Virus record (IMG/VR): IMGVR_UViG_3300032038_000051
Span: 12,740 to 76,739 of that record
DNA: 64,000 nt
Direction: 5' to 3' (one strand)
DNA from: a virus
Lineage: Duplodnaviria > Heunggongvirae > Uroviricota > Caudoviricetes
Numbering within the stretch: the stretch's first letter is position 1; every line of letters begins with the position of its first letter. The notes below the pieces were generated by a model. That model ran no database searches and was not told the DNA's origin. It saw only the letters and a list, made by a program, of their open reading frames with translations. Shown piece after piece: positions 20,678-41,236 of the stretch. The translations under genes and the position numbers were made by a program.

Positions 20678-20910
20678 GCGCAGAGAAGCGCTATCGCTGC
20701 ATAAAGGAGTTCAGCGTTCCCCTTTGCGATGATGACGGTTGCGCCGTCGAGAGTGGCGAGACGATGCCCGTAGAAGTCGGTGAGACGTTCTATCGAAGCG
20801 ACGTGACTTGGATGAATGACGTGCGTCTTGAAGGCGTTGGCGATACCTATGTATGGCTGGAAGTCAGCGAGGAAACGTTCAGAGAGCACTTTGAGGAGGA
20901 AGCCGAATGA
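20674..20910 (+). CDS. hypothetical protein
   Basis: ATGA-coupled ORF. Confidence 0.45.
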   Translation: MSAEKRYRCIKEFSVPLCDDDGCAVESGETMPVEVGETFYRSDVTWMNDVRLEGVGDTYVWLEVSEETFREHFEEEAE

Positions 20911-21125
20911 CCATCTGGGAGACGCTGTTCGGCACGCCGGAACGCACGGCCAAAACGCTTGGCTACGTCGACCAAATCGACGCCTGTGACTTCATGGCAA
21001 GCGTGCGCGAAGCGAAGATCCCGCCTGAAAGGTGCGAAGGATGCCTGTTCGACTATGACCACTATGGCTGCGGGCGGACTGACATGACGCTTGTCGAGTG
21101 GCTGAATCAGGAGATGGGCGAATGA
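20907..21125 (+). CDS. hypothetical protein
   Basis: ORF. Confidence 0.5.
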   Translation: MTIWETLFGTPERTAKTLGYVDQIDACDFMASVREAKIPPERCEGCLFDYDHYGCGRTDMTLVEWLNQEMGE

Positions 21126-21394
21126 CCGAATACGTAGGGTACAAAGACCAGATCGGCGAGGGCCTGTACAACATGGGCCTGACAGAAGAGCGAATCATCA
21201 GGTGCCGCGACTGCCAGTTCGGCCACCAGCACGACTGCAAGCGGTACCCGAAGGACAAGAAGTACATGGGCAAGTGGTACTGCATCGTGTGGGGAGACGG
21301 CATGCAGGGCGAGTGGACGCGTGAGGACGGCTTCTGCCATCGCGGAAAGCCGAGGATGGGAGAGTTGGTTCGGGACGCGAAGGGAGCTTGCTAG
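21122..21394 (+). CDS. hypothetical Cys/His-rich protein
   Basis: ORF. Confidence 0.5.
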   Translation: MTEYVGYKDQIGEGLYNMGLTEERIIRCRDCQFGHQHDCKRYPKDKKYMGKWYCIVWGDGMQGEWTREDGFCHRGKPRMGELVRDAKGAC

Positions 21395-21397
21395 CCA

Positions 21398-21670
21398 ATG
21401 AGCAAGTACGTAATAGAAATAGACGACGGCGACCTCGTCGACGGGTGTGCCCACTGCCCGCTCAACTACGACTACCAATATTGCGTCGCATACCATGGCG
21501 ACTGGTCGGAGGAGCCTGTGTCCAACTCCTCGTTTGAGGGTTGTAAGGAAGGGCGTCCGAAGAATTGCCCGCTGGTACCGCTAAAGACCACGACCAGGGA
21601 CGGAAAGGGCAAGACGAAGTTATGGCCGCTGGGTACCTCTTTGCGAATGCTGTGGATACGCGATAGGTGA
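21398..21670 (+). CDS. zinc-ribbon protein, possibly frameshifted (an alternate-frame tail ends at 21722)
   Basis: CAHCP...C N-terminus; a +1 frame continues as CECCGYAIGDRRYNFCPRCGAEIVGE and ends at a TAG that overlaps the next ATG. Confidence 0.4.
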   Translation: MSKYVIEIDDGDLVDGCAHCPLNYDYQYCVAYHGDWSEEPVSNSSFEGCKEGRPKNCPLVPLKTTTRDGKGKTKLWPLGTSLRMLWIRDR

Positions 21671-21722
21671 CAGGAGATACAACTTCTGCCCCAGATGTGG
21701 CGCGGAGATAGTGGGGGAATAG

Positions 21723-22022
21723 ATGGCTGACGTAATGACCGAAATACTGGCTAGGGTATACGTCCTCTTGGCGTGCCACATGCTCGGGGACTACGCTCTG
21801 CAAAACGACTACATAGCGAAGACGAAGGGAAGCAACCCGTGGCACATGGTCGCCCATTGCGTGCTGTACGCCGTGCCGTTCGCGGTCGTGTTCGGCATCG
21901 ACTGGCGCGTTGGGTGGCTGCTGCTGTCGCACATCATAATCGACGAGCTGAAGGTGCACGGCAAGATCGACTACAAGTCCGACCAGGTGCTGCGCCTGTT
22001 CTTTGCGTTGCTCTATTTTTAG
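21723..22022 (+). CDS. DUF3307-like membrane protein
   Basis: HMLGDYALQ...HMVAHCVLY His-containing TM pattern of DUF3307. Confidence 0.5.
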   Translation: MADVMTEILARVYVLLACHMLGDYALQNDYIAKTKGSNPWHMVAHCVLYAVPFAVVFGIDWRVGWLLLSHIIIDELKVHGKIDYKSDQVLRLFFALLYF

Positions 22023-22102
22023 GGCGAAAAACCTAATTATGACATTTGAAAGTAAATGACTATGAAGATTTGTGACAGTGGAGCACACATGCGAGGTGGG
22101 CA
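22023..22102 (+). promoter_or_regulatory. AT-rich intergenic patch, candidate promoter
   Basis: Sharp local GC drop with TTGAAA / TATGAA-like hexamers upstream of the gene starting at 22103. Confidence 0.3.
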
Positions 22103-22330
22103 ATGAGCCTCATAAAGAGTGGCTCCATGACCTGTGAGTACTGCCACCCGAACGAGGCCGGGAGCCTGAAGTGGCTGCGGGACGAACCCGACAACTGGGC
22201 ATGGCTTGAGGAGTCGAGCGACGAGTGGGGCATCGTGGTTGGCGGCAGCGCGCGATGCTGCGGAACCGATTGCACGTCCGAGCTGTACGTGAAGATAAAG
22301 TGCTGTCCGATGTGCGGAAGGGAGCTGTAA
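22103..22330 (+). CDS. zinc-ribbon protein
   Basis: CEYCHP...CCGTDC...CCPMCGREL. Confidence 0.5.
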   Translation: MSLIKSGSMTCEYCHPNEAGSLKWLRDEPDNWAWLEESSDEWGIVVGGSARCCGTDCTSELYVKIKCCPMCGREL

Positions 22331-22334
22331 GGCT

Positions 22335-22691
22335 ATGTGGAGAGAGCAATCCGAGTGGGAAGAAATCATCAAGACGGCCATCGAGAAGATCGAGCGTGGT
22401 GAAGAGCTCGAAGAAGAGGAGCTTAGGGCGCTCGCCTGCGAGGTCGAATACGCGGATCTGGATGAGATCGAGCATGTGACGGAAATCGAAGGCGAAGACC
22501 ATAGGTGGCAGCGGGAGGTAAGCACCGTCATAAAGGCGCATGGACGATACTGGCGCATTGACTGGATGCGCGCGCTCACAGAGACGTCAGAGGACGAATT
22601 CTGGGACCAGCCTGTGGAGGTAAGGCCAGTAACGCGAACCATACCGGCCCGTGAGGTCGTAGAGTACGAGGCCATATGCGATTCCGAGTAA
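22335..22691 (+). CDS. hypothetical acidic protein
   Basis: ORF. Confidence 0.5.
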   Translation: MWREQSEWEEIIKTAIEKIERGEELEEEELRALACEVEYADLDEIEHVTEIEGEDHRWQREVSTVIKAHGRYWRIDWMRALTETSEDEFWDQPVEVRPVTRTIPAREVVEYEAICDSE

Positions 22692-23068
22692 CCAACATCA
22701 AGCCCGGTTACTGTGAGGTGTGGGCGAACGAGCGCGACGGCGAACGGTATAAGCACTTGGCCGTCGTCCTTCGTGACGAAAGCTCGAACGGCAGGGGCAA
22801 GAGCTGGCACTGGTCTGCAAAACCCGACGAGCCGCCGTTCTACATGCCGTATCGCACCAACGAGTTCGACACACGCCGAGAGTGTGTCAACCACTGCATG
22901 AAGACGGCGCTCGAACGGCTTGTCAAGCGTGCCATCAATCAGCAGCCCGATGAAAGCCGACATTGGCACAGCCCGAGAAACGATGCTTGGTGCACGGTCA
23001 CGGCAAGCAGCCTATTCACGCAAGACGAGCTGAGAGCGATTAAAAAAGAGTTGGTTACCTTCCAGTAA
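22676..23068 (+). CDS. hypothetical protein
   Basis: ORF. Confidence 0.45.
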   Translation: MRFRVTNIKPGYCEVWANERDGERYKHLAVVLRDESSNGRGKSWHWSAKPDEPPFYMPYRTNEFDTRRECVNHCMKTALERLVKRAINQQPDESRHWHSPRNDAWCTVTASSLFTQDELRAIKKELVTFQ

Positions 23069-23085
23069 GGAATTGAGGAGAAGCA

Positions 23086-23421
23086 ATGAGCAAGGCAATG
23101 CAAGCGCTAAAGAACTTTCTCACTGTCTCCCCGAGCGTCGTGTACCCCGACGAGGTTCTGGAGCTTTTGGGGCCAGTGGAGCGTGAAAACGCAAGGCTGC
23201 GGGAGATAGTGAGGGACATGCATAGGGCGTTCTTCAGGCTTGACATTGACCATTGCCAAGCATGCCCACGGGACACCATTAACGGACCGTGCACGAAATA
23301 CCTTGTTGGAGGAAGCGACGAATGCGATTTCGAAGAGGAAATGCGCGAGCTTGGAATCGAGGCAAAAAATGACGCTGGACGAGGCCATAGAGCACGCCAA
23401 AGAGGTAGCGAGGACGTGTGA
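23086..23421 (+). CDS. MRELGI-tail coiled-coil family member 1
   Basis: VERENARLREIV motif and C-terminal MRELGIEAKND. Confidence 0.5.
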   Translation: MSKAMQALKNFLTVSPSVVYPDEVLELLGPVERENARLREIVRDMHRAFFRLDIDHCQACPRDTINGPCTKYLVGGSDECDFEEEMRELGIEAKNDAGRGHRARQRGSEDV

Positions 23422-23728
23422 CGACAAATCTTGCTCCGCCGAGCACGCGCAACTCGCGGAATGGCTGTCATTGCTCAAGGTCTATACGGACACACATATG
23501 GCGGAGGAAGTGCAACGTTCCCGCCACGAGATGCACGGGTGGCAGCTTGAGTGGAAGCGCGAGAAGGAGCGCAGGGAAGAGTTGGAGTCCGAGAACGCAA
23601 GGTTGCGTGAGCTATGTAAAAATCTGTACGACTTTGTATGGTTCGAGGCTCCGACGATCACGGAGCTTAACTTCGCGGTGAACATGGAAGAACTCGGAAT
23701 CGAGATCAAAAATGAAGATGAAGGCTGA
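23369..23728 (+). CDS. MRELGI-tail coiled-coil family member 2
   Basis: ESENARLRELCKNLYDF and C-terminal MEELGIEIKNEDEG; start sits in a CAAAAAATGA junction inside the previous gene's tail. Confidence 0.5.
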   Translation: MTLDEAIEHAKEVARTCDDKSCSAEHAQLAEWLSLLKVYTDTHMAEEVQRSRHEMHGWQLEWKREKERREELESENARLRELCKNLYDFVWFEAPTITELNFAVNMEELGIEIKNEDEG

Positions 23729-24167
23729 GGACGGCAAGCTGTACGCCGAGATTACGCTGCGTGATGTGGTCGAGAAGAACGACGTGAGCGACATGCCGAT
23801 ACTTGCGGAGGTCAAACGGCTGTACGCCGAGAACGACAAGCTGCGAGAGCAGATTCACTGGCTTGAGCGGGGCGACGTCATGCATGTGCTGACTGACCAA
23901 GAGTACATCGACCAGTGCGAGCGCGAGCGTCTGATGCAGGTGAGCATCGACGCGCTTGATACGGAGAACAACAAGCTACGGGAGCTTTTTAGCAAGGTGT
24001 ATGGCTACTACGTGAGCGGCACGCTGACGCCATGTGACTTCTGCGACAAATACTGCTGCGAGGGAGACGCGCCGACAACATGCAAGTCCGACGAGTACGA
24101 CCTAGACGGGGTCGTGGTCGAGGAGGTCGAGCGCCGCATGCGCGAGTTGGGGATTGGGGTGAGCTAG
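23712..24167 (+). CDS. MRELGI-tail coiled-coil family member 3
   Basis: NDKLREQIHWLERGD and ENNKLRELFSKVYGYY repeats; C-terminal MRELGIGVS; Cys cluster CDFCDKYCCEGD. Confidence 0.55.
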   Translation: MKMKAEDGKLYAEITLRDVVEKNDVSDMPILAEVKRLYAENDKLREQIHWLERGDVMHVLTDQEYIDQCERERLMQVSIDALDTENNKLRELFSKVYGYYVSGTLTPCDFCDKYCCEGDAPTTCKSDEYDLDGVVVEEVERRMRELGIGVS

Positions 24168-24569
24168 ATGAATGAAAACGAACGGATAGTGTGCGAGTTT
24201 CTACGCAAAATTGCGCCGCCGCGCGAGTGGGAATACCTTGGCGAAGTCGAGCACTACTGGATTAGCCAACTTTGTGACGAGCTGAACAAGCAGCTCAAGA
24301 CCGAGAACGCCAAGCTGCGGGAGGAGCTTGCCAAATGGGAGCGGCTTGCCGCTGGCATTGACCTGCCCGAGTATCCCGTGACGCAATTCATACCGAAGGA
24401 CTTGGAACGCGAAAACTCAAAGCTGCGGGAACTTGTGGCGGACATGTTGGTGTGCGTAAGCGAGGGGGACTGGGACTGCTCAGACTGCCCTCGATACGCC
24501 AGATGCGACGAGGGCGTAAGTGAGTTCATTGACCGCGCACGCGAACTGGGAGTTGGGGCGGACGTATGA
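24168..24569 (+). CDS. MRELGI-tail coiled-coil family member 4
   Basis: ENAKLREELAKWERL and ENSKLRELVADMLVCV; C-terminal ARELGVGADV; CSDCPRYARCDEG. Confidence 0.55.
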   Translation: MNENERIVCEFLRKIAPPREWEYLGEVEHYWISQLCDELNKQLKTENAKLREELAKWERLAAGIDLPEYPVTQFIPKDLERENSKLRELVADMLVCVSEGDWDCSDCPRYARCDEGVSEFIDRARELGVGADV

Positions 24570-25159
24570 GCGAGCTGTACGAACTAAGGCCCGCGTGCGA
24601 GGGCATGAGCAGGTCGGAGATTACCGACCTGTTGGACAGGGAGCTCGTCCGTCTCAGGCTTACCAAGAAGAACGCTTATGGCTACTGGGCGCACGAGGTA
24701 TGGCTTGACCGGTACAAGGAGAAGGGCGAGGCCAAGAGGGTGGACTTCGTGGATTTCGTGCCGAAGGGCGGGCCGATGTACAGCGACGGCCCGCACGTCG
24801 AGCATGGGACGTTCACTTTCTACGAGGTCAAGTCATGCATGGCAGACCTCAAGAGCGGCCACGGGCTTACCTTCGAGGGTGACGAGAACTTCCTCGTCAT
24901 GCCAGTGGAGTTGTACGAGCCATACCTAAAGGAGAGCATGAAGGACGAGCACCTTCGCCAGAGTACGCGATACGCGCGATGCCTTCTTTACGGCACCGGG
25001 AGGAGCGGCAAACCGACGTTCTGGGAGCAGCCTAAGAAGCTTGAAAACGACTGGTACTGCCGCAAGAGAAGCGCGTCAGAGCTGCTCTTCTGCCTGATGC
25101 GCGCGATGATAGCCAACAGCGACCACTCAAGCGTTGAGCACCCAGTGAAAAGGATGTAG
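24566..25159 (+). CDS. putative PD-(D/E)XK nuclease (MmcB-like)
   Basis: RVDFVDFVP (Asp) ... FTFYEVKSC (E-x-K) arrangement. Confidence 0.4.
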   Translation: MSELYELRPACEGMSRSEITDLLDRELVRLRLTKKNAYGYWAHEVWLDRYKEKGEAKRVDFVDFVPKGGPMYSDGPHVEHGTFTFYEVKSCMADLKSGHGLTFEGDENFLVMPVELYEPYLKESMKDEHLRQSTRYARCLLYGTGRSGKPTFWEQPKKLENDWYCRKRSASELLFCLMRAMIANSDHSSVEHPVKRM

Positions 25160-25331
25160 GCATGTGCAGCAAAGACCCAGATCGAAGGTGCGACGGCAGA
25201 TTCAGTAGGTCGTCGGACCTGTCTTCGGGGGTGGTCCCGCTTTACTACTGTCCGTCGGTGAACCGCTCCATCTATATGGAGAGGGGCGCGATGTTCTGTC
25301 CCCTTTGCGGTGGAAGAATCGAGGCGTCAGA

Positions 25332-25754
25332 ATGAGGCCGTCAATAACCGGGGAACTGCGCGAATGCGCGTCACGCCTTGAGCGCGGCGGCATGGATCGC
25401 GGTGTCATAGACGCGCTGCGAAGCATCGCGGACAACATCGACCTCGAGCACTCGAGGCGCATGGACCAACAGGCATGCGACATACGCGAGGCGACATGCA
25501 AGTATTTCGGAGGCGTGGTCAATGACTACCGCCACGGAATCAAGAGGACTGGCGCGCGAAAGGGGAACGCGGAGCTTCGGAAGAGCCTGAGTGGCATGGT
25601 CGTTGGCACATATGCCGAGCTGTGCACGGAGAGGGACAGGACGCAATGCAGGAAGTGCTCCATGCGCGGTGAGTCCGACGACGATTGCGAGCCTGCAAGA
25701 GCCATGAGACTGCTTGGCATCGACATGTATGGGGAAGAGGTTCGGTATGACTGA
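25332..25754 (+). CDS. hypothetical protein (paralog of 27698..28003)
   Basis: C-terminal TQCRKCSMRGESDDDCEPARAMRLLGIDMYGEEVRYD parallels ETCTRCSMNNADHNGCLVTVAMRSLGIDEHGKDVTYE. Confidence 0.5.
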   Translation: MRPSITGELRECASRLERGGMDRGVIDALRSIADNIDLEHSRRMDQQACDIREATCKYFGGVVNDYRHGIKRTGARKGNAELRKSLSGMVVGTYAELCTERDRTQCRKCSMRGESDDDCEPARAMRLLGIDMYGEEVRYD

Positions 25755-26139
25755 CAGTCAAGATACGACCACGATAACCGTGCGCACGTTTCTCATCGGA
25801 ACGGACAAGGAAGCGGCACTCAAATCGCTGGAGGAGGCTTCTGAGGTCTACGGATCATGGCAGGATTGGGAAGCATGCGCCCCATACGCCCCGCCAGACC
25901 CGTGTCGCGAGGCCGGCTATCCGCAGCAATATGAGTGTGACCGCAAGGGGGAGTGCGACACGCTCTGCATTCGGACTCCGGTGAATTGCGGCTCCAGAAT
26001 CCTCGCCGACGAGATAGCAGATTGCATACAGGCGTGCTGCAACCTCGCGGCGCGCTACCACATCGACCTGCAAGCGGCCATGGACCGCTGCTACGAGCGC
26101 AACCGCGCAAGAGGGAGGATTCAAGATGGCGAGGAATAA
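25747..26139 (+). CDS. protein with MazG-like C-terminal helical segment
   Basis: IADCIQACCNLAARYHIDLQAAMDRCYERNRARG resembles the MazG/NTP-pyrophosphohydrolase helical pair; weak. Confidence 0.35.
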   Translation: MTDSQDTTTITVRTFLIGTDKEAALKSLEEASEVYGSWQDWEACAPYAPPDPCREAGYPQQYECDRKGECDTLCIRTPVNCGSRILADEIADCIQACCNLAARYHIDLQAAMDRCYERNRARGRIQDGEE

Positions 26140-26353
26140 GACTTACACGTGCGACCGCTGCGGCGCGCAGTTCGACGAAACGGACGGGTTCTCGCTTAGG
26201 CTCTACCACAAGTCACATGCACGTCGCGAATGGCACAAGTACGAAGCCGCGACTCTCGACTTCGACCTGTGCGAAAGCTGCGCGGGTGCCATAGCGGACG
26301 GAGTGAGGGACGTGGCTATGCACCGTGCGGCGGAGAAAGAGGTGACGGCATGA
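26126..26353 (+). CDS. zinc-ribbon protein
   Basis: CDRCGAQF...CESCAGAI. Confidence 0.45.
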   Translation: MARNKTYTCDRCGAQFDETDGFSLRLYHKSHARREWHKYEAATLDFDLCESCAGAIADGVRDVAMHRAAEKEVTA

Positions 26354-26604
26354 TAACGGAATGGAACATGATGCGCGACTCGGAGCCGCAACCCGGCGAG
26401 GGGAGGTTCCTGGTCATGGGCGTGAAGGGCGGCCTCTACATCGCCAAGGAGTACATGGACGACAGCGCCATCTGCGCCATCTTCGGTCGCTGCTTCCGCA
26501 CCTACAACGGGAACTACGTCGAGGCGGACAAGGTCGTGGCGTGGGCGGAGGTGCCGACGCTGGACGAGCTCATGTCCACGCGAGAACGGGGAGGTAAACG
26601 ATGA
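26350..26604 (+). CDS. hypothetical protein
   Basis: ATGA-coupled ORF. Confidence 0.45.
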   Translation: MITEWNMMRDSEPQPGEGRFLVMGVKGGLYIAKEYMDDSAICAIFGRCFRTYNGNYVEADKVVAWAEVPTLDELMSTRERGGKR

Positions 26605-26837
26605 ACAGAAACGCGAACACGTTGGCGTCCGTCGCCGACGACATATTCCACATGAACGGCGGGATCATGTCGCAGGAAGACTACTACCGCCTGTACGGCC
26701 TGGCCTCCGACATAGACACGGTCGAGGACGAGCGCCTGAGACTGCTCGAGCTGGCCGGCGAGATGTACGAGGACCAGGTGCCGGACGAGGAGCGGTGGAG
26801 GTACCGCGACCGGCTGCGCGAGCTGGGGGCGATCTGA
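26601..26837 (+). CDS. hypothetical protein
   Basis: ORF. Confidence 0.5.
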   Translation: MNRNANTLASVADDIFHMNGGIMSQEDYYRLYGLASDIDTVEDERLRLLELAGEMYEDQVPDEERWRYRDRLRELGAI

Positions 26838-27448
26838 TGGGCGCGAATGCCGAAAACCCACCGTCACACCCGCTCGTGTCGTACGCTGAGTACCTCGACT
26901 GGAACCGGGCGGAATGCGACGACGTCGCCCGCAGGCTGAAGGAAATCGCCGCCGAGATAGACGCGAGGGTCATCGAGACCAATGGACGGTACAGGGACCT
27001 GCTCGCCAAGGCGCTCGGATGCATAGACGTGATCGCAAAGCATGGGCAGACCCTGTCGTGCGGAGCGTGCCACGAGTGGTACGGCAAGTGCCCGCTTAGG
27101 GACGGGGCGTCCGAACTCGGTGTGACGGACGCGAAGCAACCACCGGTCGATGACGACCGAGGGCTGGCGGAGGAGTGCGCCGAGCTAAGGCACATGCTCC
27201 GCGAGGCGCATGACGCCTACGACAGGCTGCTGCACACAAACCGCATGACGGTCGACGAGGACGCCAGGATCAGGAACGAGCTCTCCGGCTTGAGGGTCGA
27301 GAGGGACAGGCTGGTCGAGCTCGCCTTGGACATGCGCGACGCCCTCGGCGGGGTCGACGAGCCACCGGACTTCGACCGACCGTGGCTGGGCGGCTTCGAC
27401 GAGCGCATGCGCGATCTGGGGATACTGGAGAAGGGAGACGGTCGATGA
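26837..27448 (+). CDS. MRELGI-tail family member 5 (distant)
   Basis: ECAELRHMLREAHDAYDRL and C-terminal FDERMRDLGILEKGDGR; CGACHEWYGKCP cluster. Confidence 0.5.
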   Translation: MGANAENPPSHPLVSYAEYLDWNRAECDDVARRLKEIAAEIDARVIETNGRYRDLLAKALGCIDVIAKHGQTLSCGACHEWYGKCPLRDGASELGVTDAKQPPVDDDRGLAEECAELRHMLREAHDAYDRLLHTNRMTVDEDARIRNELSGLRVERDRLVELALDMRDALGGVDEPPDFDRPWLGGFDERMRDLGILEKGDGR

Positions 27449-27684
27449 TTCATTCGATCGCAATGAAGGTGGTGGTCGTGTGCGCCGCCGTGTACGTCGC
27501 GTCGTTCACGACGATAAAGCTCATAGGCAGCGGCATCGACGCCGGGGAGCTCATGAGCATGCTGCTGGACCACAGGCGCTGCTATGAGCACCCGTGGTTC
27601 ATGATCGCATCGGTGGTCTCATGCTGCTCTCCAAGGTCGTGGGCGTCGTGTCGCTGCTTGTCATGGCCGTGGCGTGGGCGATAG
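27445..27684 (+). CDS. hypothetical membrane protein (frame uncertain)
   Basis: N-terminal TM helix; an alternate frame gives a cleaner TM tail (MLLSKVVGVVSLLVMAVAWAIGA). Confidence 0.3.
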   Translation: MIHSIAMKVVVVCAAVYVASFTTIKLIGSGIDAGELMSMLLDHRRCYEHPWFMIASVVSCCSPRSWASCRCLSWPWRGR

Positions 27685-27697
27685 GGGCGTGACGGGC

Positions 27698-28003
27698 ATG
27701 GACGTGCAGGACCGGCTCTGGACGACCTCCTGGACACTCCATATGCGCGCCTCCGCCGACCTTGACGACGAGCTGGCCGAGTGCGCCAACGCGGTCGATG
27801 TCGCCGCTGGCGAGATGGACATGATCGCAGGCTTCCTCAGGAGACTCACCGTCGGTGTCTTCGCGGAGGTATGCGCCGATGCCGACCACGAGACATGCAC
27901 CAGGTGCTCGATGAACAACGCCGACCACAACGGCTGCCTCGTGACCGTCGCCATGAGATCCCTCGGGATCGACGAGCACGGAAAGGACGTGACGTACGAA
28001 TGA
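27698..28003 (+). CDS. hypothetical protein (paralog of 25332..25754)
   Basis: Shared C-terminal C.RCSM...AMR.LGID..G..V.Y tail. Confidence 0.5.
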   Translation: MDVQDRLWTTSWTLHMRASADLDDELAECANAVDVAAGEMDMIAGFLRRLTVGVFAEVCADADHETCTRCSMNNADHNGCLVTVAMRSLGIDEHGKDVTYE

Positions 28004-28335
28004 GGACTTCGCAGGAGGATGGGCTGCTGCACAAGTACAGGCCGCTCCCCGAGGACGGTCCGCGCCACAAGAAGAGGACGAGGAAGGCCCACGTGAGGAG
28101 CGACCACAAGCACGCGTACGAGACGGTGTGCGTCGACTCGGGCGACTGGGTGTACGCGTGCGGCGAGCGGTACCACGTCTACCACACGGCGACGAGGTGC
28201 TCCGTGTGCGGAAGGATAGGGGACGTTACGATGCGCGACCTGCGCGAGGTTCCCGAGGACATGCCGCTTTACGAGGTCGACGGCATCAACGACCTGCTCG
28301 CAAAGACCCTGCCCGACGAGAGGAGGGCGTCATGA
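28000..28335 (+). CDS. zinc-ribbon protein
   Basis: CVDSGDWVYACGERYH...RCSVCGRIG. Confidence 0.5.
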   Translation: MRTSQEDGLLHKYRPLPEDGPRHKKRTRKAHVRSDHKHAYETVCVDSGDWVYACGERYHVYHTATRCSVCGRIGDVTMRDLREVPEDMPLYEVDGINDLLAKTLPDERRAS

Positions 28336-28994
28336 GCACGGGCTATGCCAGCCAGCTAACCAAGAAGTCGTTCCTTGCGGGCGCCCTGATATCGGTCGGG
28401 GCGCTCTTCTCGTTGGCGGCGAGGGAGTACGGGCCGGTGGTGCAGGGACTCTGCTTCGGCGTCGGCCTCACCGGAGTCATGTGGACCCAGTCGAGCCTGT
28501 TCACCGGCAGGGTGCTTGACTCGGGTGCGGTCATGCGCGCGGAGCCCGGCCACGAGCGGGCGACGGCGCTCGACAGGCTCGTCGGCGAGCTTACCGTCGC
28601 GTGGGCGCTCAACCTGCTTGGCGCCGTGGTCGTCGCCCTTCATGCGAGAGCGATGCACTTCGACGCGTCCGCCGTCGCGACGGCCAAGGCGGCGATGCCG
28701 TGGCGCGAGCTGGTCATACGCGCCATCTTCTGCAACGTCATGGTATGTCTGGCCGTGTTCGCGAACCGCCGCGCCAACGGATCGCCATTGGCGGCGCCCG
28801 TCATATGCGCGCTGCCGGTCGCCTGCTTCGTCGCGTGCGGGTTCGAGCACTGCGTGGCCGACATGCTGTACATGCCGCTCGGCTTTATGCAGGGGGCCGT
28901 CACCCCAATGGACTGCGTCCGCGTCATCGGACTCGCGACAGTCGGCAACGTCATGGGCGGAGTCGCGTTCGCATGGCTCGCGGAGGCGCGCTGA
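28332..28994 (+). CDS. formate/nitrite transporter (FNT) family channel protein, short form (~220 aa)
   Basis: SSLFTGR (FNT signature-1-like LFTG), IFCNVMVCLAV (signature 2 [GA]xxCN[LIVMFYW]2VC[LV]A), ACGFEHCVADMLYMP (FEH-IANM region); six hydrophobic segments. Confidence 0.7.
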   Translation: MSTGYASQLTKKSFLAGALISVGALFSLAAREYGPVVQGLCFGVGLTGVMWTQSSLFTGRVLDSGAVMRAEPGHERATALDRLVGELTVAWALNLLGAVVVALHARAMHFDASAVATAKAAMPWRELVIRAIFCNVMVCLAVFANRRANGSPLAAPVICALPVACFVACGFEHCVADMLYMPLGFMQGAVTPMDCVRVIGLATVGNVMGGVAFAWLAEAR

Positions 28995-29215
28995 TGGCCG
29001 CGCACGACTTCGAGACGCACAGGTGCGGCGGCTCCCTCGATGCGCGCTGCTCGATACGGAGATACGGACAGGACGGCTCCAAGCTGTTCCAGAGGTTCCG
29101 CAGGGACGGGGAGTGGCACCTGTACCGACAATACGTCGACTTTGACTACGACTACACGGGCTTGGACGAGGTTGCGAGGATATCCCACTGCCCGTGGTGC
29201 GGGAAGGAGCTTTGA
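28994..29215 (+). CDS. zinc-ribbon protein
   Basis: C-terminal HCPWCGKEL. Confidence 0.45.
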   Translation: MAAHDFETHRCGGSLDARCSIRRYGQDGSKLFQRFRRDGEWHLYRQYVDFDYDYTGLDEVARISHCPWCGKEL

Positions 29216-29216
29216 C

Positions 29217-29474
29217 ATGGCGTGCGAGTACTGCGACCAAGAGCACTTGGAGCCCATCGCCGTCTGCGCCAGCGAGGGCTGGTCGATGACCCTCGTCAAC
29301 GACGAGGGGCGCGGGTGCTGGGAACTTGTCCACGAGAGGCTCACGCCTCCATACGGCTGCGTCGTCGAGAGCCGCGCGCGCGTACGCAACTGCCCGATGT
29401 GCGGCAGGGCGCTTCCGTCGTCGTGCGACGACGGCACCCCTCCCGACGGTCACGCGGGAGGTGACATGACGTGA
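29217..29474 (+). CDS. zinc-ribbon protein
   Basis: CEYCDQ...NCPMCGRALP. Confidence 0.45.
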   Translation: MACEYCDQEHLEPIAVCASEGWSMTLVNDEGRGCWELVHERLTPPYGCVVESRARVRNCPMCGRALPSSCDDGTPPDGHAGGDMT

Positions 29475-29689
29475 GCGACTTCTACCTATGCGACCTGTGC
29501 ATGGGGAACCTGAGCGACCCGGCATGGGGGCGCCAAGAGTATCAGGCGTACCGGCACGACGAGTGCGAGTGCGACTGGCACGGACGCACGAAGAAGGTGA
29601 CGGCGCACGACGACGGCGGGGGAGGGCCGCACGTGTCGTGCAGGCTGTTCGTGCCGCGGACAGAGACGCTGACGGGAACGGAGCATTGA
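29471..29689 (+). CDS. hypothetical Cys-rich protein
   Basis: GTG start; CDLCMG...CECDWHG. Confidence 0.4.
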   Translation: MSDFYLCDLCMGNLSDPAWGRQEYQAYRHDECECDWHGRTKKVTAHDDGGGGPHVSCRLFVPRTETLTGTEH

Positions 29690-30006
29690 TGGAAGACTTC
29701 TTTCAGGAAATCTTGGTGTATTCGGCCGGCGTGAGGAGACGGGCGCTGATCGTCATAACCGTGTTGCTCGCGCTCCTCACGCTCGTCGCCGCGTACTTCA
29801 CGAGCGGGGTCGTGTCAGAGCAGGACGCGATCGGAGCCAACGCGCACGAGTTCGAGTCGGACAATGCGTGGGACACGTTCGACACGGTGACCGACATGGG
29901 CACCGGCGTCACGTACGTGGTTTGGACCAACGGGCACGGCAGCGGCATGGCGCCGCTGCTCGACAGGAACGGGAGGCCGGTGATTTCGGAGGTGGTTGGC
30001 GAATGA
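29689..30006 (+). CDS. membrane-anchored hypothetical protein
   Basis: N-terminal TM helix RRALIVITVLLALLTLVAAYF. Confidence 0.45.
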   Translation: MEDFFQEILVYSAGVRRRALIVITVLLALLTLVAAYFTSGVVSEQDAIGANAHEFESDNAWDTFDTVTDMGTGVTYVVWTNGHGSGMAPLLDRNGRPVISEVVGE

Positions 30007-30869
30007 ACAAGGACGAGAGGGCGCGCATGACCGAGTACCACAGGGGCTGGACCGACGGGCGAGCTGCGCGCACCGCCGACGAGTGGTCGCTCGACATGGA
30101 GCGCAAGGCGGTCTCACACAGGCTTCGCGGCGTCACCTTGCCGGAGGACGCCGACAGCTACGGGAATCTCAGCGCGATATGTGGCGCCATCTTCCACGCG
30201 AAGTACGGATGGACGCGCGGGGCGTGCGACGCGCTGCGCGAAAGGCTCGTGCACCTGCTCGTCGGCGATCGTGCGGACGTGCAGCCGGACGAGGCGACCG
30301 AGTTCGCGGACCGACTCAGGGAGTGCGCGGAGCACGGCGAGGACGTGACGCTCTTCGGCGTCGACTACACGCCGTCCAGCCGCGCGTCCGAGGAGTCGGA
30401 GCGGCTTGCGAGCTACGTCCTCGACATAGCGGACCACCTCGGAGTGGAGGCGGGCGACCACGATGGCCCCGCCGACGCGTACGCGAAGGTGGTCGAGAGC
30501 CTCCAGGACTACAACCCGCTCGACGACACCGCGGAGGCGGTCGCCGAGTACCACAAACAGCTCAGGAGGTGGATGGGCGAGGCGAAGAACCTCGCCGACG
30601 CGCTGAGGCAAAGGGTCGACGCGAGGCCCGCCAGCGTGGTGCCGGACGGGTACACGGAGCTTCCGAAGGTCAGCAACGGGCACGTGCACATGGGAGACAC
30701 CATCGAGTGGGACAGTCCGTCGGGCACGTGCGTGCTCGGGCCGATAGACCGCATCTCCCTGCAAGCCTACGGCACGAGCGTATTTTCGATGAGTTCCCCC
30801 AGCGGACGGTACATAACGGGCGACGAGAGGGTCGTGCGGCACAACGAGAAGGACGGAGAGCACGCATGA
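30003..30869 (+). CDS. hypothetical protein (288 aa)
   Basis: ATGA-coupled ORF. Confidence 0.55.
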   Translation: MNKDERARMTEYHRGWTDGRAARTADEWSLDMERKAVSHRLRGVTLPEDADSYGNLSAICGAIFHAKYGWTRGACDALRERLVHLLVGDRADVQPDEATEFADRLRECAEHGEDVTLFGVDYTPSSRASEESERLASYVLDIADHLGVEAGDHDGPADAYAKVVESLQDYNPLDDTAEAVAEYHKQLRRWMGEAKNLADALRQRVDARPASVVPDGYTELPKVSNGHVHMGDTIEWDSPSGTCVLGPIDRISLQAYGTSVFSMSSPSGRYITGDERVVRHNEKDGEHA

Positions 30870-31618
30870 GAGACAACATCGAGTTCATAGGCCAGTCCGT
30901 CGAGTACGTCGGCGGCTACGGCGGGGACGACACCATCGAGAGCGCCGCGAGGACGTGCACCCAGACGGTCGGGAGGAAGTCTGCGTCCGACTTCGTCAGG
31001 GGCCTCGTCAGGAGAGGACACATGTCCCCCACCGAGTTCGGTTTCGCCGACTTCCTCATCGAGGTCGACCGGGCCATCCAGCAGGAGCTCACGAGGCACA
31101 GACACTTCTCGTTCAACATCGAGAGCACCCGTTGGATTAACTACCTGAAAAAGCCGGTGCGCTTCGTCACGAAGCCCGCGAAGGGATGGGACGTGCCCGA
31201 CGAGGCGGTCGAGCTGCTCGAGCGGTGGTGCGAGCTGTCCGTGCTGGTGTACGAGGCGCTGCTCGCACTGCACGCCGACAGGGACTACGCCAGGAAGGCG
31301 TGGCCGCTCGCGCTGGCGTCCAACGTGAGGATGGCCGGCAACAGCCGCGCGTGGTTCGAGATGATCGCCAAGCGGATAGTCGGGGCCGCGCACCCGGAGG
31401 CGCGCGAGGTGGCGGTCGAGTGCGCTCGGGAGCTTGGAGGGCGGTTCGTCGGGCTGTTCTCGGCGAAGGCCGGCGGAAGATACAGGCCGAGGCAGCATAC
31501 CGCCAGGCCGCAGGGGTCGAACCACACCGTCGTGTCCGCGAACGTCGAGCTGTGGGACGACGACCCGCCGGCGTCGATCGAGCTCGGAAGCCACACGTAC
31601 ACCATCGAGTCCGCGTAG
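30866..31618 (+). CDS. thyX: flavin-dependent thymidylate synthase ThyX
   Basis: ThyX motif RHRHFSFNIES (RHR-x7-S), ~250 aa, FAD-binding N-terminal region. Confidence 0.85.
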   Translation: MRDNIEFIGQSVEYVGGYGGDDTIESAARTCTQTVGRKSASDFVRGLVRRGHMSPTEFGFADFLIEVDRAIQQELTRHRHFSFNIESTRWINYLKKPVRFVTKPAKGWDVPDEAVELLERWCELSVLVYEALLALHADRDYARKAWPLALASNVRMAGNSRAWFEMIAKRIVGAAHPEAREVAVECARELGGRFVGLFSAKAGGRYRPRQHTARPQGSNHTVVSANVELWDDDPPASIELGSHTYTIESA

Positions 31619-31691
31619 TGCGGTCGCGAGACAAGCAAGCCGTTTCAACGGGCCGTCCGCAGTGGGCGGCCCTCGTTCTTGGGAGGACGAG

Positions 31692-32624
31692 ATGTTCCAA
31701 CTTGTAATAGCCGTGATCCTGCTCCTCGTTGCGCTGGCGGCGCCGTCCGTCGTGAGGAGCTACAACAGGGAGTACAAGGCCGACGCGAGCGCGAGGCCGT
31801 TCGTGGTCGGCGCGCTGGCCTTAGCTGCGGTGGCGGTCGCCACGGCGTGCGTGTACGGGCAGGACGCAGGCGAGGTCATCGTCAGGATAAACCTCGGCGG
31901 GTCTCTTGCCGGCTATACGGAAGAGGCCGGCTTCCACGTCAAGGCCCCGTGGCAGAGCACGGTGAGCTACGACGTCCGAAACAATTTAATAAACTTGTAT
32001 CGCGACGCCGAGTACTCGTACGACGGCGGAGCCGCGGAAGGTGCGTGCGTGACCGTCAACGACAGAGGAGGGGCGTCGGCCGACATCGACCTCCAGGTGG
32101 TGTACTCGCTCGACGGGGCCTCAGCCCTCAAGCTCTACGAGGACTACGGCACGCAAGAAAAATTTACGTCCGACGTAATCCTCAACGCCGTGCGCGCGAC
32201 GGCACGCGAGGTGGCCGGAGCGTATGACACGATAACATTGCTCACCAACAGAGGGGAGTTCACCAAGGGGATCCGCGACGCGCTCACCTCGCGGTGGGCC
32301 GAGCTCGGGCTGAACGTCGAGCAGGTGTCCGTTCAGGACGTCCGCTACCCCGAGTCCATCAAGGACCGCTACGCCGAGGCGCAGGCAGCCGAGGTCGCCA
32401 AGGCCAAGGCGCTGAACGAGCAGGAGACCGCCCGCGTGACTGCCGAGACGAAGAAGATTAACGCGCAGGGCGAGGCCGACGCCAACCGAATCCTCACCGA
32501 GTCCCTCACTCCCGAGGTCATTCAGCAGCACTACATCGACACGCTCGGGGAGATAGGCAACAAGGGCAACATGGTCGTGGTTCCGCAGGGCTCGACGCCC
32601 ATGGTGCAGGTCGGTGAAAAATAA
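31692..32624 (+). CDS. SPFH/band-7 (stomatin/prohibitin/HflKC-like) membrane protein
   Basis: N-terminal TM anchor, SPFH core (QVSVQDVRYPESIKDRYAEAQAAEVAKA...) and C-terminal coiled-coil. Confidence 0.75.
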   Translation: MFQLVIAVILLLVALAAPSVVRSYNREYKADASARPFVVGALALAAVAVATACVYGQDAGEVIVRINLGGSLAGYTEEAGFHVKAPWQSTVSYDVRNNLINLYRDAEYSYDGGAAEGACVTVNDRGGASADIDLQVVYSLDGASALKLYEDYGTQEKFTSDVILNAVRATAREVAGAYDTITLLTNRGEFTKGIRDALTSRWAELGLNVEQVSVQDVRYPESIKDRYAEAQAAEVAKAKALNEQETARVTAETKKINAQGEADANRILTESLTPEVIQQHYIDTLGEIGNKGNMVVVPQGSTPMVQVGEK

Positions 32625-32864
32625 ATGACGAATGAGCACGAGTACAGGGTCCTGCACGGGAAGCTGGTCGACCACTGCGGCACGCTGTGCCTCGGCGACA
32701 TAGACGTGTGGGACAAGCGGTACGACACGCTCGAGGCCGCGCACTACGAGCTCATGACGATGGGGTGCGACTCGGTGGGCGAGTGGGCGTGCTGGCCGTT
32801 CGCCGAGGGCTTCGAGCCCGAGCTCGCATACCTCCACGCCGACGACTTCTACGCCGTCATCTAG
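32625..32864 (+). CDS. hypothetical protein
   Basis: ORF abutting the SPFH stop. Confidence 0.5.
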   Translation: MTNEHEYRVLHGKLVDHCGTLCLGDIDVWDKRYDTLEAAHYELMTMGCDSVGEWACWPFAEGFEPELAYLHADDFYAVI

Positions 32865-33122
32865 GAGACCCCGGCGGGCGGTCGAGGCCGCCCGCCATCG
32901 GAGGGAGGCAACGAATGGCACACGGAAGGGCATGCGTATCGACGCCCGAGGACTTCGTCCGCAGGGACACGACGTCGATGCCACGCGCCGACAACCCGGA
33001 GGACCGCATGCGTGCCCGCGTGACGCGCGGAGGGGCCGCGTCGCGCGAGATTCCCGAAGGCGCGGACAATCAGCCCGAGTCGGTACTCGATGGCCGCAGA
33101 CGCCGCGAGAACGCGCCGGACG

Positions 33123-33419
33123 ATGACGGTGGCTACGTTGGCCGAGAGGTCGTGCGCCCACATGCGTGACGACGTGTTCCTCAAGGACGCGAGCTACATA
33201 TTCTCGAGCACCCTGTGCGACATGATGGACGAGTACGGGATGATGGCGGACGGCTCCGACAGGGAGTTCAACCGCGAGACCATACGCATGTGCACGGAGG
33301 AGTTCGGCCCTGCGCTCGACGAGCTCATCGCATGGGTCGAGGAGCGCAGCGCCGCCGACGTGACGCGCATGCTGGTGAGGTCGCGGCTCGCGCGCGGCGG
33401 CACGCCATGGAGGAGGTGA
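33123..33419 (+). CDS. hypothetical protein (boundaries uncertain)
   Basis: ORF in a stretch where several GC-frame ORFs overlap. Confidence 0.3.
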   Translation: MTVATLAERSCAHMRDDVFLKDASYIFSSTLCDMMDEYGMMADGSDREFNRETIRMCTEEFGPALDELIAWVEERSAADVTRMLVRSRLARGGTPWRR

Positions 33420-33527
33420 CGGCATGCACGTGCCACATTACGAGCCGACGCCAGTCAACGACGACGATTGGGCGTTCGGCATCTTCTACTCGAAGGCCAT
33501 ACGCAAGGCGATTGAGAGGTGGGGCTG

Positions 33528-34001
33528 ATGGCATGGGATGACGACAGGCCGTACGCGCCGTTCTACCTTGGAGAGGGCTCCAAGCCCAACCCAGACAGGA
33601 CGCGCCTTGAGCGGCTCGAGTACGAGAGACGGACCGGCGACATGGTCGAGCACGTCGACACGAACCCCGGCAAGGACGACATAGACGCGATGTACGCAGG
33701 CGCGCACGTGCCGGCATGGACGTACGACAGGTGGCGCGACTACGAGACCGACTACGCGTTCAGGCCGTTCAGGGAGGTTCGCCTCAAGCTGAGGCTCGCG
33801 GGCTTCTCGCCGCGCAGGAGCGCCGGCACGTTCATGTTCGAGGACGAGCATGGCCGCGCGTACCCGATGACGGCGGGCGAGTTCAACCGCCTGTGCGAGG
33901 ACGGCGTGCTGTCGTCCGAGATCGACGGCTTCTGGAGCGCCGTGAAGCGCGGACGGACGTACGGGGTGACGCTCGTGCGGCTGGCGGGGGAGGAGCCATG
34001 A
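33528..34001 (+). CDS. hypothetical protein
   Basis: ORF. Confidence 0.5.
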   Translation: MAWDDDRPYAPFYLGEGSKPNPDRTRLERLEYERRTGDMVEHVDTNPGKDDIDAMYAGAHVPAWTYDRWRDYETDYAFRPFREVRLKLRLAGFSPRRSAGTFMFEDEHGRAYPMTAGEFNRLCEDGVLSSEIDGFWSAVKRGRTYGVTLVRLAGEEP

Positions 34002-34778: not shown

Positions 34779-34851
34779 CGGCGCGGAGCACATGAACTGT
34801 CAACGAGGGGACGGCAATCTGGCCGCCCCCTTTTTGTTGGAGGGAGAAAGA

Positions 34852-35988
34852 ATGAACGAGAACCGCAAGATGGCGACCGTGCGCAAGGTCGCCGGGACCA
34901 TGCCCATCGAGGGCGCCGACCGCATCGAGCGCGTCATGGTCGACGGGTGGGTGGTCATCGACCGCAAGGACGAGTGGCATGAGGGCGACCTCTGCGTCTA
35001 CCTCGAGCCCGACACCTTCGTCAGCAAGGACGTCGAGCCGCTGTCGTACCTCATGGCGAGGGGCACCAAGCGCATGGAGCACGACGGCGTGGAGTGCGAG
35101 GGGCATGTCCTGCGCACCATCCGGCTGCGCGGGGTCTACAGCGCCGGCCTCATTGCCAAGCCGTCCGACTTCTTCATGTCGCCGGACGAGGTTCGTGCGG
35201 CATACGAGAGCGGCGAGGCGCTCGACGAGCGCATCGGCGTCTGGGAGTATCAGAGGCAGGTCAAGTGCCCCGATGGCACCACGAGACAGGTCTCCAACCC
35301 CTACGACCAGAGCGTCGCGCCAGTCACAGACGCCCAGCGCATCCAGAACTGCGCCGACGTCTGGGACGCGCTCAAGAAGGTCGACGCGTACGCCACGGTC
35401 AAGGTCGACGGCATGAGCATGACCACGGTGCTCGACCCCCGCACCAACAGGTTGCGGCTCTTCTCGCACCACAGGGAGCTCGGCTACTCCGACGAGCCCG
35501 CCGACTCCGGCGCGTCCGACGCCACGAGGGGGCAGCGCTCCTACGACGCCGCCAAGGCGCAGGGCATCGTCGACTTCTGCCTCGGCCATCCGGGGATCAC
35601 GGTGCAGTACGAGCTGACGGGGCCAAAGATCCAGCGCGGCATCACCGGCGGGTTCAGGTGCCACGTGTTCGCCGTGTGGGACATGGCGAAGATGCGCAAG
35701 ATCCCCTACGACGAGATCGTCGAGAGCGGCTGGGACGCCATCGTGGCGTCGCACGTGAGGGTGCTCGACATGAGGGCGTCCGACTACGACACCGTGGCGG
35801 ACGCGCTGATGGCCGTCGACAAGCTGAGCGGGAACGTGGTCAAGGGCAAGCCCGACGAGGGCGTGGTCTTCCACGTGACCGGCCAAGGCTCCGCCGACGA
35901 GTACGAGTGGGCGCGCGTCAGGAACAAGCTGGGCCCGAACGCCGAGTTCAAGGTCGTGTCCCAGCGATACCTGTCGAAGGAGAAGTAG
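34852..35988 (+). CDS. ATP-dependent RNA ligase, DRB0094-like family
   Basis: N-terminal MATVRKVAGTMPIEGADRIERVMVDGWVVIDRKDEWHEGDLCVYLEPDTFV resembles the DRB0094-family start (..HPNADKLE..GW..VVKKGEF..GDL.VY.E.D); nucleotidyltransferase motif I VKVDGMSMT (KxDG). Confidence 0.7.
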   Translation: MNENRKMATVRKVAGTMPIEGADRIERVMVDGWVVIDRKDEWHEGDLCVYLEPDTFVSKDVEPLSYLMARGTKRMEHDGVECEGHVLRTIRLRGVYSAGLIAKPSDFFMSPDEVRAAYESGEALDERIGVWEYQRQVKCPDGTTRQVSNPYDQSVAPVTDAQRIQNCADVWDALKKVDAYATVKVDGMSMTTVLDPRTNRLRLFSHHRELGYSDEPADSGASDATRGQRSYDAAKAQGIVDFCLGHPGITVQYELTGPKIQRGITGGFRCHVFAVWDMAKMRKIPYDEIVESGWDAIVASHVRVLDMRASDYDTVADALMAVDKLSGNVVKGKPDEGVVFHVTGQGSADEYEWARVRNKLGPNAEFKVVSQRYLSKEK

Positions 35989-41052: not shown

Positions 41053-41053
41053 A

Positions 41054-41129: not shown

Positions 41130-41143
41130 TGTCACACCCGTAC

Positions 41144-41231: not shown

Positions 41232-41236
41232 TGAAC

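Follow-up and report, generated by a model that had tools for sequence, protein, structure and literature searches.

We analysed a gene that belongs to the FNT (formate/nitrite transporter) family and is predicted to encode a membrane channel, in the genome of a tailed phage (Caudoviricetes). The stretch of DNA studied, referred to below as the window, comprises 64,000 nucleotides of the IMG/VR virus record IMGVR_UViG_3300032038_000051 (positions 12,740 to 76,739 of that record), and all coordinates are those of the window. The gene lies on the + strand at 28332–28994, where a preliminary description, made from the sequence alone, had placed an open reading frame (ORF) of 220 amino acids. The reading frame is indeed present: it opens with ATG and closes with TGA at 28992–28994, the stop codon being included in the coordinates, and a strong Shine-Dalgarno sequence, GAGGAGG, can be read at 28320–28326 (+), five nucleotides before the ATG.

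The gene is closely joined to both of its neighbours. Its ATG overlaps the TGA of the upstream gene (28333–28335) as ATGA, a four-nucleotide overlap that also appears in the gene calls on an identical contig (L001), and its own stop overlaps the start of the next gene as TGATG. We considered a longer in-frame version beginning at GTG 28128 and rejected it, because the extension is rich in Arg, runs over the upstream gene, and is missing from all homologues, which begin at the ATG. Since the homologues all start at this position, the product of 220 residues stands.

Signature motifs

Both FNT signatures named in the preliminary description are found in the protein, LFTG at residues 56–59 and CNVMVCLA at residues 134–141. 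The codons of L56-F57-T58-G59 (28497–28508, +) belong to the omega-loop and align with L89-F90-T91 of E. coli FocA, so that T58 is the equivalent of FocA T91; all four residues are invariant in 26 clade members. The codons of the TM4 signature (TM, transmembrane helix), C134-N135-V-M-V138-C-L-A141, lie at 28731–28754 (+), with N135 and V138 corresponding to FocA N172 and V175. Between these two motifs lies the codon of K119 (28686–28688, +), the equivalent of FocA K156, an anion-attracting Lys of the vestibule that is invariant in the clade of close relatives defined below.

The preliminary description had also named an FEH-IANM-like central His region. This too is present, as F171-E172-H173-C-V-A176-D177-M178 (28842–28865, +), which covers the S-loop and the start of TM5b and reads ADM in place of ANM; E, H, A, D and M are invariant in the clade. 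The FocA equivalents of E172, H173, A176 and D177 are E208, H209, A212 and N213, respectively. The last position of interest is V198 (codon at 28923–28925, +), an invariant Val in the clade at the position of FocA N254. Against what we take to be the PROSITE patterns for the family, two of the ten positions of signature 1 are unmatched (W51 and Q53), and signature 2 is matched.

Family membership and predicted fold

Profile comparison places the protein in the FNT family. Its match to Pfam PF01226 (Form_Nir_trans) has an E-value of 1.5e-37 and a score of 129.7 bits, almost four-fold over the gathering cutoff of 34.6, and spans residues 8–216 of the protein and positions 20–236 of the 240 in the profile. 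Among proteins of solved structure, the sequence matches are, best first, the hydrosulfide channel (HSC) of C. difficile (E = 3e-16), V. cholerae FocA, NirC, LciA, the FocA proteins of Salmonella and E. coli, and PfFNT.

We built an AlphaFold model of the monomer on 26 clade members (pLDDT 92.3, pTM 0.86). The model consists of TM1 (residues 3–29), TM2a (35–51) and TM2b (57–69), TM3 (74–107), a short helix (113–121), TM4 (124–147), TM5a (154–169) and TM5b (174–186), and TM6 (192–219). TM2 is broken at the non-helical residues 52–56, at the omega-loop, and TM5 at residues 170–173, the S-loop. When the model was compared with the PDB by Foldseek, the top 50 matches were all FNT channels, with TM-scores of up to 0.83; the HSC structures 3te1 and 3tdo gave a TM-score of 0.82 with a root-mean-square deviation of about 3 Å, and FocA, NirC, PfFNT and LciA were matched as well. 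The model thus has the six-helix, aquaporin-like topology with broken TM2 and TM5. The preliminary description had named two outcomes that would tell against its assignment, namely the lack of a significant family match and a topology other than six helices with two signature half-helices, and neither was observed. We regard the FNT fold and family membership as practically certain.

Pore residues compared with FocA

For the comparison of individual residues we used E. coli FocA, whose reference sequence is identical to PDB 3kcu. Giving the phage residue first in each pair, the central constriction is lined by F42/F75, F166/F202 and A176/A212, and the cytoplasmic slit by L46/L79, L56/L89 and V138/V175. 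The omega-loop carries the pair F57/F90 and T58/T91, the S-loop the pair E172/E208 and H173/H209, and the vestibule and structural network K119/K156, N135/N172 and N206/N262. All of these constriction, loop and network residues are invariant across the 26 clade members, which are 46–62% identical. The roles of the constrictions and of the vestibule Lys in FNT channels have been described (PMC5525234, PMC9380403), and K156 of FocA is essential for translocation (PMC9380403).

At two conserved Asn positions the phage protein departs from FocA, and both changes are invariant in the clade. At the position of FocA N213, the phage protein has Asp (D177), where 87% of 165 aligned FNT sequences have Asn (PMC9380403). 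We asked whether this change might mark an altered or disabled pore. We rejected that possibility in view of FocA N213D, with which formate is exported and hypophosphite taken up at near-native levels (PMC9380403), together with the occurrence of the FEH(S/C)(I/V)ADM variant in at least 575 bacterial homologues; the change to Asp appears benign. At the position of FocA N254, the phage protein has Val (V198). This position faces the periplasmic mouth and is occupied by Asn in 73–100% of the members of the FocA, FdhC, NirC and HSC subfamilies (PMC5525234). The Asn is retained in the cellular relatives and in a 229-residue phage relative (P0298), and V198 is the sole unusual pore-facing feature of the protein.

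The phage protein is also smaller than FocA. It starts some 37 residues later, TM1 of the model beginning at residue 3, and its loops are shorter by 8 residues (TM1–TM2), about 12 residues (TM3–TM4) and about 22 residues (TM5–TM6); the C-terminal tail is absent. In FocA, the missing N-terminal helix, of roughly 25–37 residues, binds PflB and gates the pore (PMC12559229). Of the features that characterise the FocA subfamily, the phage protein has neither the PflB-binding N-terminal helix (residues 1–30) nor the FocA-specific residues: the four positions S92, T93, K100 and L167 are occupied by G59, R60, V67 and R130.

A clade known so far only from phage-like contigs

Among 5.8 billion proteins searched, we obtained 104 clusters of relatives, 204–225 residues long and 46–62% identical to the window protein. 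Beyond these there is a sharp fall to cellular FNTs of 268–291 residues at 31–37% identity, including proteins of Parvibacter caecicola and Bifidobacterium sp.; no cellular match exceeds 37%. When 1.84 billion representative sequences were searched with a profile, there were 5,509 FNT matches, in which the window clade came first and was followed by a continuum of proteins of 229–246 residues. Peptide patterns specific to the clade had no match in 185,579 species-representative genomes, a negative that is informative for this narrow clade only. In a rough neighbour-joining tree, drawn without support values, the window clade and four distant relatives of known context form a group of 28 with no known cellular sequence inside it.

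We read the genomic context of eight members: an exact copy of the window gene (L001), P0066 (on L002, a 116-kb IMG/VR viral genome), P0053, P0070, P0298, P0316, P0153 and P0315. All eight lie on syntenic, phage-like contigs of 27–124 kb, and this is true even of four of the more distant ones, P0298 (43% identity), P0316, P0153 and P0315. These contigs share a repertoire of ThyX, dUTPase/dCTP deaminase, a PHA02142 RNA ligase, DnaB, Lar, DUF6440, Ro60/TROVE, Acb2/Tad1 and DarA_C, and in the relatives ThyX is found 0.2–10 kb from the FNT gene. The gene, with its gene order unchanged, was met again in assemblies made independently of one another (ENA, JGI, Logan and IMG/VR). The clade has so far been found only on related phage-like contigs.

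The gene is under purifying selection. Compared with three near-identical environmental variants, which differ from it by 2–8 substitutions each, the ratio of nonsynonymous to synonymous substitution rates is 0.13–0.33, and none of the substitutions falls on a pore residue.

Some further features of the relatives may be recorded here. On the contigs L022–L024, a gene for an Acb2/Tad1-hairpin anti-defence protein stands directly after the FNT gene (10699–10926), and a Ro60/TROVE protein is encoded near the RNA ligase (4859–6316), as it is on L026 (11739–13235), which suggests an RNA-repair module. The same three contigs carry an IS200/IS605 insertion with TnpA and TnpB by thyX (727–2365), and L026 carries an OrfB/TnpB gene alone (1146–2303).

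Searches of phage collections require some care. The 20 kb around the FNT gene had no megablast match among 50,697 phage records, which leaves no cultured relative from which annotation could be taken over. The tblastn matches to phages were mostly focA of Salmonella or E. coli in mislabelled or prophage-end records, together with fragmentary 'phage' contigs of Listeria and Enterococcus, and only MT838410, MT835541 and phAss-1 were informative. In INPHARED, the records AFYI01000003.1, AGRM01000003.1, ON470623.1, ON470599.1 and PV468777.1 are whole Salmonella contigs or E. coli prophage records with host focA at their ends, a database contamination that could be mistaken for FNT cargo of phages.

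Genomic context in the window

The window holds about 100 mostly small, tightly packed and overlapping ORFs, those before about 43.5 kb reading on the + strand and the rest on the − strand. Our family scans covered 34 of these ORFs. Upstream of the FNT gene they identified a YqaJ/RecE-like exonuclease (1525–2451), RecT (2462–3778), a DnaD-like initiator (5702–6391), a DnaC-like loader (6360–7151), two DNA methyltransferases (9377–10591 and 11029–11913) and the sliding clamp DnaN (12308–13432). Downstream lie ThyX, a FAD-dependent thymidylate synthase (30866–31618, +; Pfam Thy1, 108.8 bits; PHROG 85), a PHA02142-type RNA ligase (34792–35988) and an HNH endonuclease (48339–49037). Four tRNAs, Met-CAT, Thr-AGT, Ser-GCT and Trp-CCA, are packed into 333 bp near the end of the + block (40978–41310, +), and a scan against Rfam found nothing else. 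By its gene content, the window resembles the part of a large phage genome that is given to replication and nucleotide metabolism, which agrees with the earlier placement of the FNT gene among early genes. The companion claim, that the gene is far from any lysis cassette, can be upheld only in part, for the 34 ORFs scanned, among which there was no structural or lysis family and no endolysin.

The gene thyX is the last of the uninterrupted + strand string that holds the FNT gene. Just 3' of it is a terminator-like hairpin (31650–31672, +), identified by consensus match only. This is the only intergenic terminator-like site downstream of the FNT gene on the + strand, and the number of terminator-like sites is not above shuffled expectation. 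A consensus scan found no sigma-70-like promoter in 24000–34000. The GC content of the FNT gene, overall and at third codon positions (GC3), is in line with that of the neighbouring genes.

We considered the immediate neighbours as possible functional partners of the channel and rejected them. Of the ten ORFs that flank the gene, only DUF6440 and ThyX match PHROG or Pfam families, the others being ORFans, and a gene for an SPFH/Band-7 protein, a stomatin/prohibitin-like membrane protein (31692–32624, +; PHROG 200, labelled 'lipoprotein'), is not kept beside the FNT gene in the relatives. This gene follows the hairpin after thyX, and we claim no link between it and the channel. Directly 3' of the FNT gene, at 28994–29689 (+), are three small ORFs of 73, 85 and 72 amino acids, each with zinc-ribbon-like CxxC...CxxC motifs and without a match in Pfam, PHROG or PADLOC.

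On a larger scale, the coding strand flips from + to − at about 43500–44000, where the GC and AT skews change sign; the transcription blocks are convergent there, and the site is possibly a replication landmark. The regions 20000–26000 and 48000–64000 have a GC content of 0.55–0.60, as against 0.63–0.69 elsewhere, and contain very small ORFan genes; they may be mosaic or recently acquired modules.

Host and habitat

One relative (L022; GCA_017533825.1, contig JAFWIE010000072.1) has been deposited in a metagenome-assembled genome (MAG) labelled 'Atopobiaceae bacterium'. It is phage-like over all of the 20 kb that we read, and its genes recur on a metagenome contig of 117 kb. Most probably a phage genome has been binned into the MAG, which gives a useful but weak hint of the host. 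The record names STEW19, WILK20 and XIEF21 appear to point to studies of the ruminant gut. The phage is thus probably from the ruminant gut, and its host is probably a member of the Coriobacteriia/Atopobiaceae, a fermenting, high-GC anaerobe of that habitat.

Other viral FNTs and short cellular FNTs

The preliminary description held that FNT channels had not been described as phage cargo. This is not the case. The auxiliary metabolic genes (AMGs) published from cyanophages include focA/nirC (Gazitua et al. 2020, PMC8115048; Fuchsman et al. 2023, PMC9983427). PHROG 36362 matches the phage protein; UniProt and BFVD contain a 191-residue 'Formate/nitrite transporter' (A0A8S5NWF3) from the human-gut siphovirus Siphoviridae sp. 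ctTnV63; and near-identical copies of the window protein are labelled FocA by JGI. Our searches for literature on FNTs of gut or rumen phages turned up the cyanophage work only.

At least 15 further, unrelated viral contigs in IMG/VR (L003–L017), mostly of 88–217 kb and with a GC content of 26–49%, encode FNT homologues of 183–226 residues with the motif GFEHSIADM; they include an alternative-code (TAG-recoded) phAss-1 group. This sample is biased, in that the scan pattern itself selected the ADM motif. Like the window protein, these viral FNTs, together with PHROG 36362 and A0A8S5NWF3, are short (183–226 residues) and conserve the Thr and the His. Unlike it, they come from genomes of 26–49% GC, as against about 64%, and they are only 24–33% identical to it. 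They are nearer to bacterial short FNTs (up to 62% identity) than to the window clade, and therefore look like separate acquisitions. Capture of FNT genes by large phages looks recurrent.

The preliminary description had remarked that the protein is shorter than cellular FocA/NirC. Shortness is not peculiar to the phage, for short FNTs are common in bacteria: among the 80 best bacterial homologues of the ADM type, the median ORF is 216 amino acids. Only 38% of 22,242 FNTs align with the first 30 residues of FocA (PMC12559229), and we rejected a phage-specific truncation in view of this low share and the common bacterial short forms. In Finegoldia magna DSM 20470, the gene of a 211-residue FNT lies between fdhD and the molybdenum-cofactor genes moeA/mobA-mobB (L083, 5219–8805), and a Fibrobacter short FNT gene is found among housekeeping genes (dxs/peptidase). 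The Finegoldia neighbours suggest that the short FNTs, a class little studied, serve formate dehydrogenase in Gram-positive anaerobes.

Discussion

We favour, with moderate confidence, the view that this FNT channel is an auxiliary metabolic gene through which the phage handles formate in a fermenting anaerobe. It is important to separate the components of this view. The protein is predicted to be a functional, selective channel, and here we are fairly confident; a metabolic role of the AMG type seems rather probable; and formate as the main substrate is a tentative choice. To judge from the family, the product would assemble as a homopentamer in the cytoplasmic membrane of the host and would let through a small monovalent anion, or the acid conjugate to it, by the mechanism of the family, in which the Lys would attract the anion, protonation would take place near the Thr/His centre, and the neutral acid would pass the constrictions. 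Because the FocA-type N-terminal gate is absent, we take the channel to be ungated and would expect it, once synthesised, to conduct constitutively.

Such a channel would give a fermenting host an extra route for formate across its membrane, lactate, nitrite and hydrosulfide (HS−) being less likely substrates. It could serve to vent fermentation acid, so that glycolytic ATP production goes on, or it could let in external formate as a one-carbon source for purine synthesis and for the ThyX-dependent synthesis of thymidine monophosphate. The proximity of ThyX and dUTPase is compatible with the idea of formate uptake. Co-expression of the FNT gene with replication and nucleotide-metabolism genes is, like the metabolic role itself, among the least certain parts of this view; it would be supported by the translational coupling on both sides of the gene, the lack of a promoter-like site nearby, and the position of the sole downstream intergenic hairpin after thyX. 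The fullest version of the proposal, in which a lineage of phages of ruminant and other gut anaerobes, on contigs of up to about 124 kb, has long carried a gate-less FNT to rewire the formate traffic of its hosts, including the uptake of abundant external formate for purine and thymidylate synthesis, strikes us as unlikely when taken as a whole.

A number of observations count against the formate proposal. The protein misses every cutoff of the NCBIfam models for named transporters, scoring 110 bits against 232 for fnt (TIGR00790), 81.5 against 290 for FocA (TIGR04060), 59 against 293 for NirC, and 48 against 440 for FocA (NF008069); the FocB model also matches it, far under its cutoff. Since these scores are so far below the cutoffs, the protein is an FNT member and not an orthologue of FocA or NirC. 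At the positions that discriminate the subfamilies by the table of Mukherjee et al. (PMC5525234), S92 is replaced by G, L167 by R, L37 by K, and N113 by a hydrophobic or variable residue. The resulting pattern is mixed, NirC-gamma/HSC-like rather than FocA-like, and does not allow the substrate to be called from sequence. The best match in the PDB is, moreover, a hydrosulfide channel and not FocA, and the change of N254 to Val is without characterised precedent outside YfdC-type proteins, so that selectivity could differ. In FocA, deletions and substitutions in the N-terminal helix abolish the bidirectional translocation of formate (PMC12559229); to call the window protein ungated is thus to assume that short FNTs work without this helix. 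As for the surrounding genes, the proximity of ThyX and dUTPase reflects the shared synteny of related phages, and is one observation rather than independent evidence. Finally, what points to the ruminant gut and the Atopobiaceae is the naming of records and the bin label of a single MAG.

The same residues and the same structural match bear on the possibility that the channel carries another anion, with nitrite, hydrosulfide or lactate being exported or admitted so as to relieve, for example, HS− or nitrite stress or a load of lactic acid in a rumen host. The solved structure closest to the protein is the C. difficile hydrosulfide channel, the equivalents of S92G, L167R and L37K and the hydrophobic residue at N113 resemble NirC-gamma and HSC rather than FocA, and Atopobiaceae produce lactate. 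Yet no gene for nitrite reductase, sulfite reductase or lactate metabolism was found near the FNT gene in the window or in seven relatives, the short cellular relatives adjoin genes for formate-dehydrogenase maturation, and the selectivity of FNTs is broad, so that typing by a few residues is weak. In cyanophages, by comparison, focA stands beside nirA (PMC8115048), unlike the window gene. On balance we consider another anion unlikely as the main substrate. That the gene is not phage cargo at all, whether because the contig is bacterial and the FNT a cellular one, because the assembly is chimeric or because the gene is a passenger in decay, is extremely improbable. One relative was indeed deposited in a bacterial MAG, and the INPHARED collection has obvious contamination by host focA; but the MAG contig is phage-like over all of the 20 kb that we read, assemblies from four separate sources show the gene in the same order, the GC and GC3 of the gene match those of its neighbours, it is under purifying selection, and the clade is absent from the 185,579 representative genomes.

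The remaining alternatives take the protein to act on the membrane itself. As a multi-pass membrane protein in a phage, it might be a permeabiliser, that is, a non-canonical holin, a pinholin-like lysis timer or a depolarising device of late killing; no canonical holin was identified among the window ORFs scanned, and the pH gradient might in principle be run down by weak acid that cycles through an ungated FNT. The invariance of every constriction and Thr/His residue argues instead for selective conduction rather than a lesion. With 220 residues and six TM helices, the protein also differs from holins, which have fewer than about 150 residues and 1–4 TM helices and are encoded beside the endolysin in a late lysis cassette, whereas the FNT gene sits in a replication and nucleotide-metabolism block with no endolysin or structural gene detected around it in the eight contexts; and its short homologues are ordinary cellular genes. 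We therefore judge this role very unlikely. Equally small is the likelihood of a factor for superinfection exclusion, abortive infection or anti-defence that would alter membrane or ion status. Such a role might be suggested by the Acb2/Tad1-type gene that directly follows the FNT gene in three relatives and by Lar restriction-alleviation homologues in the same gene strings, but the Acb2 adjacency is not kept in the window or in L018, L020, L025 or L027, and PADLOC gave no match at E ≤ 0.01 for the FNT protein or five of its neighbours. To our knowledge, no FNT belongs to any defence or exclusion system, and a role of this kind would leave the conserved substrate-handling residues unexplained. 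Among the roles listed in the preliminary description, the selective channel acting as an AMG is thus the one that we favour, while the holin and defence roles found no support.

Should the channel be active, it would show that phages infecting fermenting gut anaerobes act on the flow of small anions from fermentation. In the rumen, formate is a key currency for electrons and one-carbon units and feeds methanogens, and most phage AMGs described so far are enzymes, not pores. If the formate-uptake reading is true, the gene would be a channel-type AMG that ties the replication of phage DNA to the transfer of formate between species and, indirectly, to rumen methanogenesis; that other large phages, of 26–49% GC, have independently captured short FNTs would then point to a recurrent strategy in anaerobic habitats. 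The clade is also a naturally minimised FNT, of 204–225 residues with short loops and no N-terminal gate, which could serve studies of structure and mechanism in the gating and selectivity of the family. In addition, the gene is a practical marker for an undescribed group of large phages likely to infect Coriobacteriia-like hosts, one contig of which is now binned in a bacterial MAG. The interest of the system lies, therefore, in the depth and breadth of its conservation across undescribed large phages of the gut and rumen, in the formate angle, and in its value as a minimal FNT.

It remains to compare the window gene with its nearest characterised counterparts. The cyanophage focA/nirC genes resemble it in being FNT genes of tailed phages that are read as altering the anion transport of the host during infection. 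The cyanophage copy shares 86% identity with Prochlorococcus FocA; it is of full length, its C-terminal region is charged, and it lies in a nirA cassette with NtcA sites (PMC8115048, PMC9983427). The window protein, in contrast, reaches no more than 37% identity with cellular FNTs and belongs to an old, phage-restricted clade with a host probably of another phylum and another habitat; close identity to a host gene and a partner enzyme gene, the marks of the cyanophage type of AMG, are absent from it, the latter in all eight contexts.

Among characterised structures, C. difficile HSC/FNT3 (PDB 3TDO and variants) is the best match both in sequence and in structure (TM-score 0.82–0.83). It shares with the window protein the Thr of LFTG, the vestibule Lys (K148), the His of FEH (H201), and a basic residue at the position of FocA L167. 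It differs in having 268 residues, an N-terminal helix (K16) and ANM rather than ADM, in the Asn that 89% of HSC members have at the N254 position, and in its overall sequence (24–27% identity). HSC goes together with an operon for sulfite reductase, asrABC, whereas genes of the asrABC type are not present near the window FNT gene. E. coli FocA (PDB 3KCU, 9G49) likewise has the six-helix, aquaporin-like fold and the same constriction, Thr/His, Lys, Glu and Asn residues, but it is 29% identical, is extended at the N-terminus by about 37 residues, the PflB-binding gate, has longer loops and a functional C-terminal tail, and its specific residues S92, T93, K100, L167 and N113 are not common to the window protein.

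A likeness in build is seen in the short cellular FNTs of the Finegoldia type, with the motif FEHS(I/V)ADM. Their Pfam score is 126 bits, compared with 130 for the window protein, their median length is 216 residues over 80 loci, and they share with it the lack of a FocA-type N-terminal helix, the short loops, the Asp at the N213 position, and the Thr, His, Lys and Phe of the pore. They differ from it in their ordinary cellular contexts, in an identity of 27–36%, and in falling outside the phage clade in the rough tree. An FNT borne by a phage has precedent, then, and what is new here is a phage-restricted, minimal branch of a known channel family.

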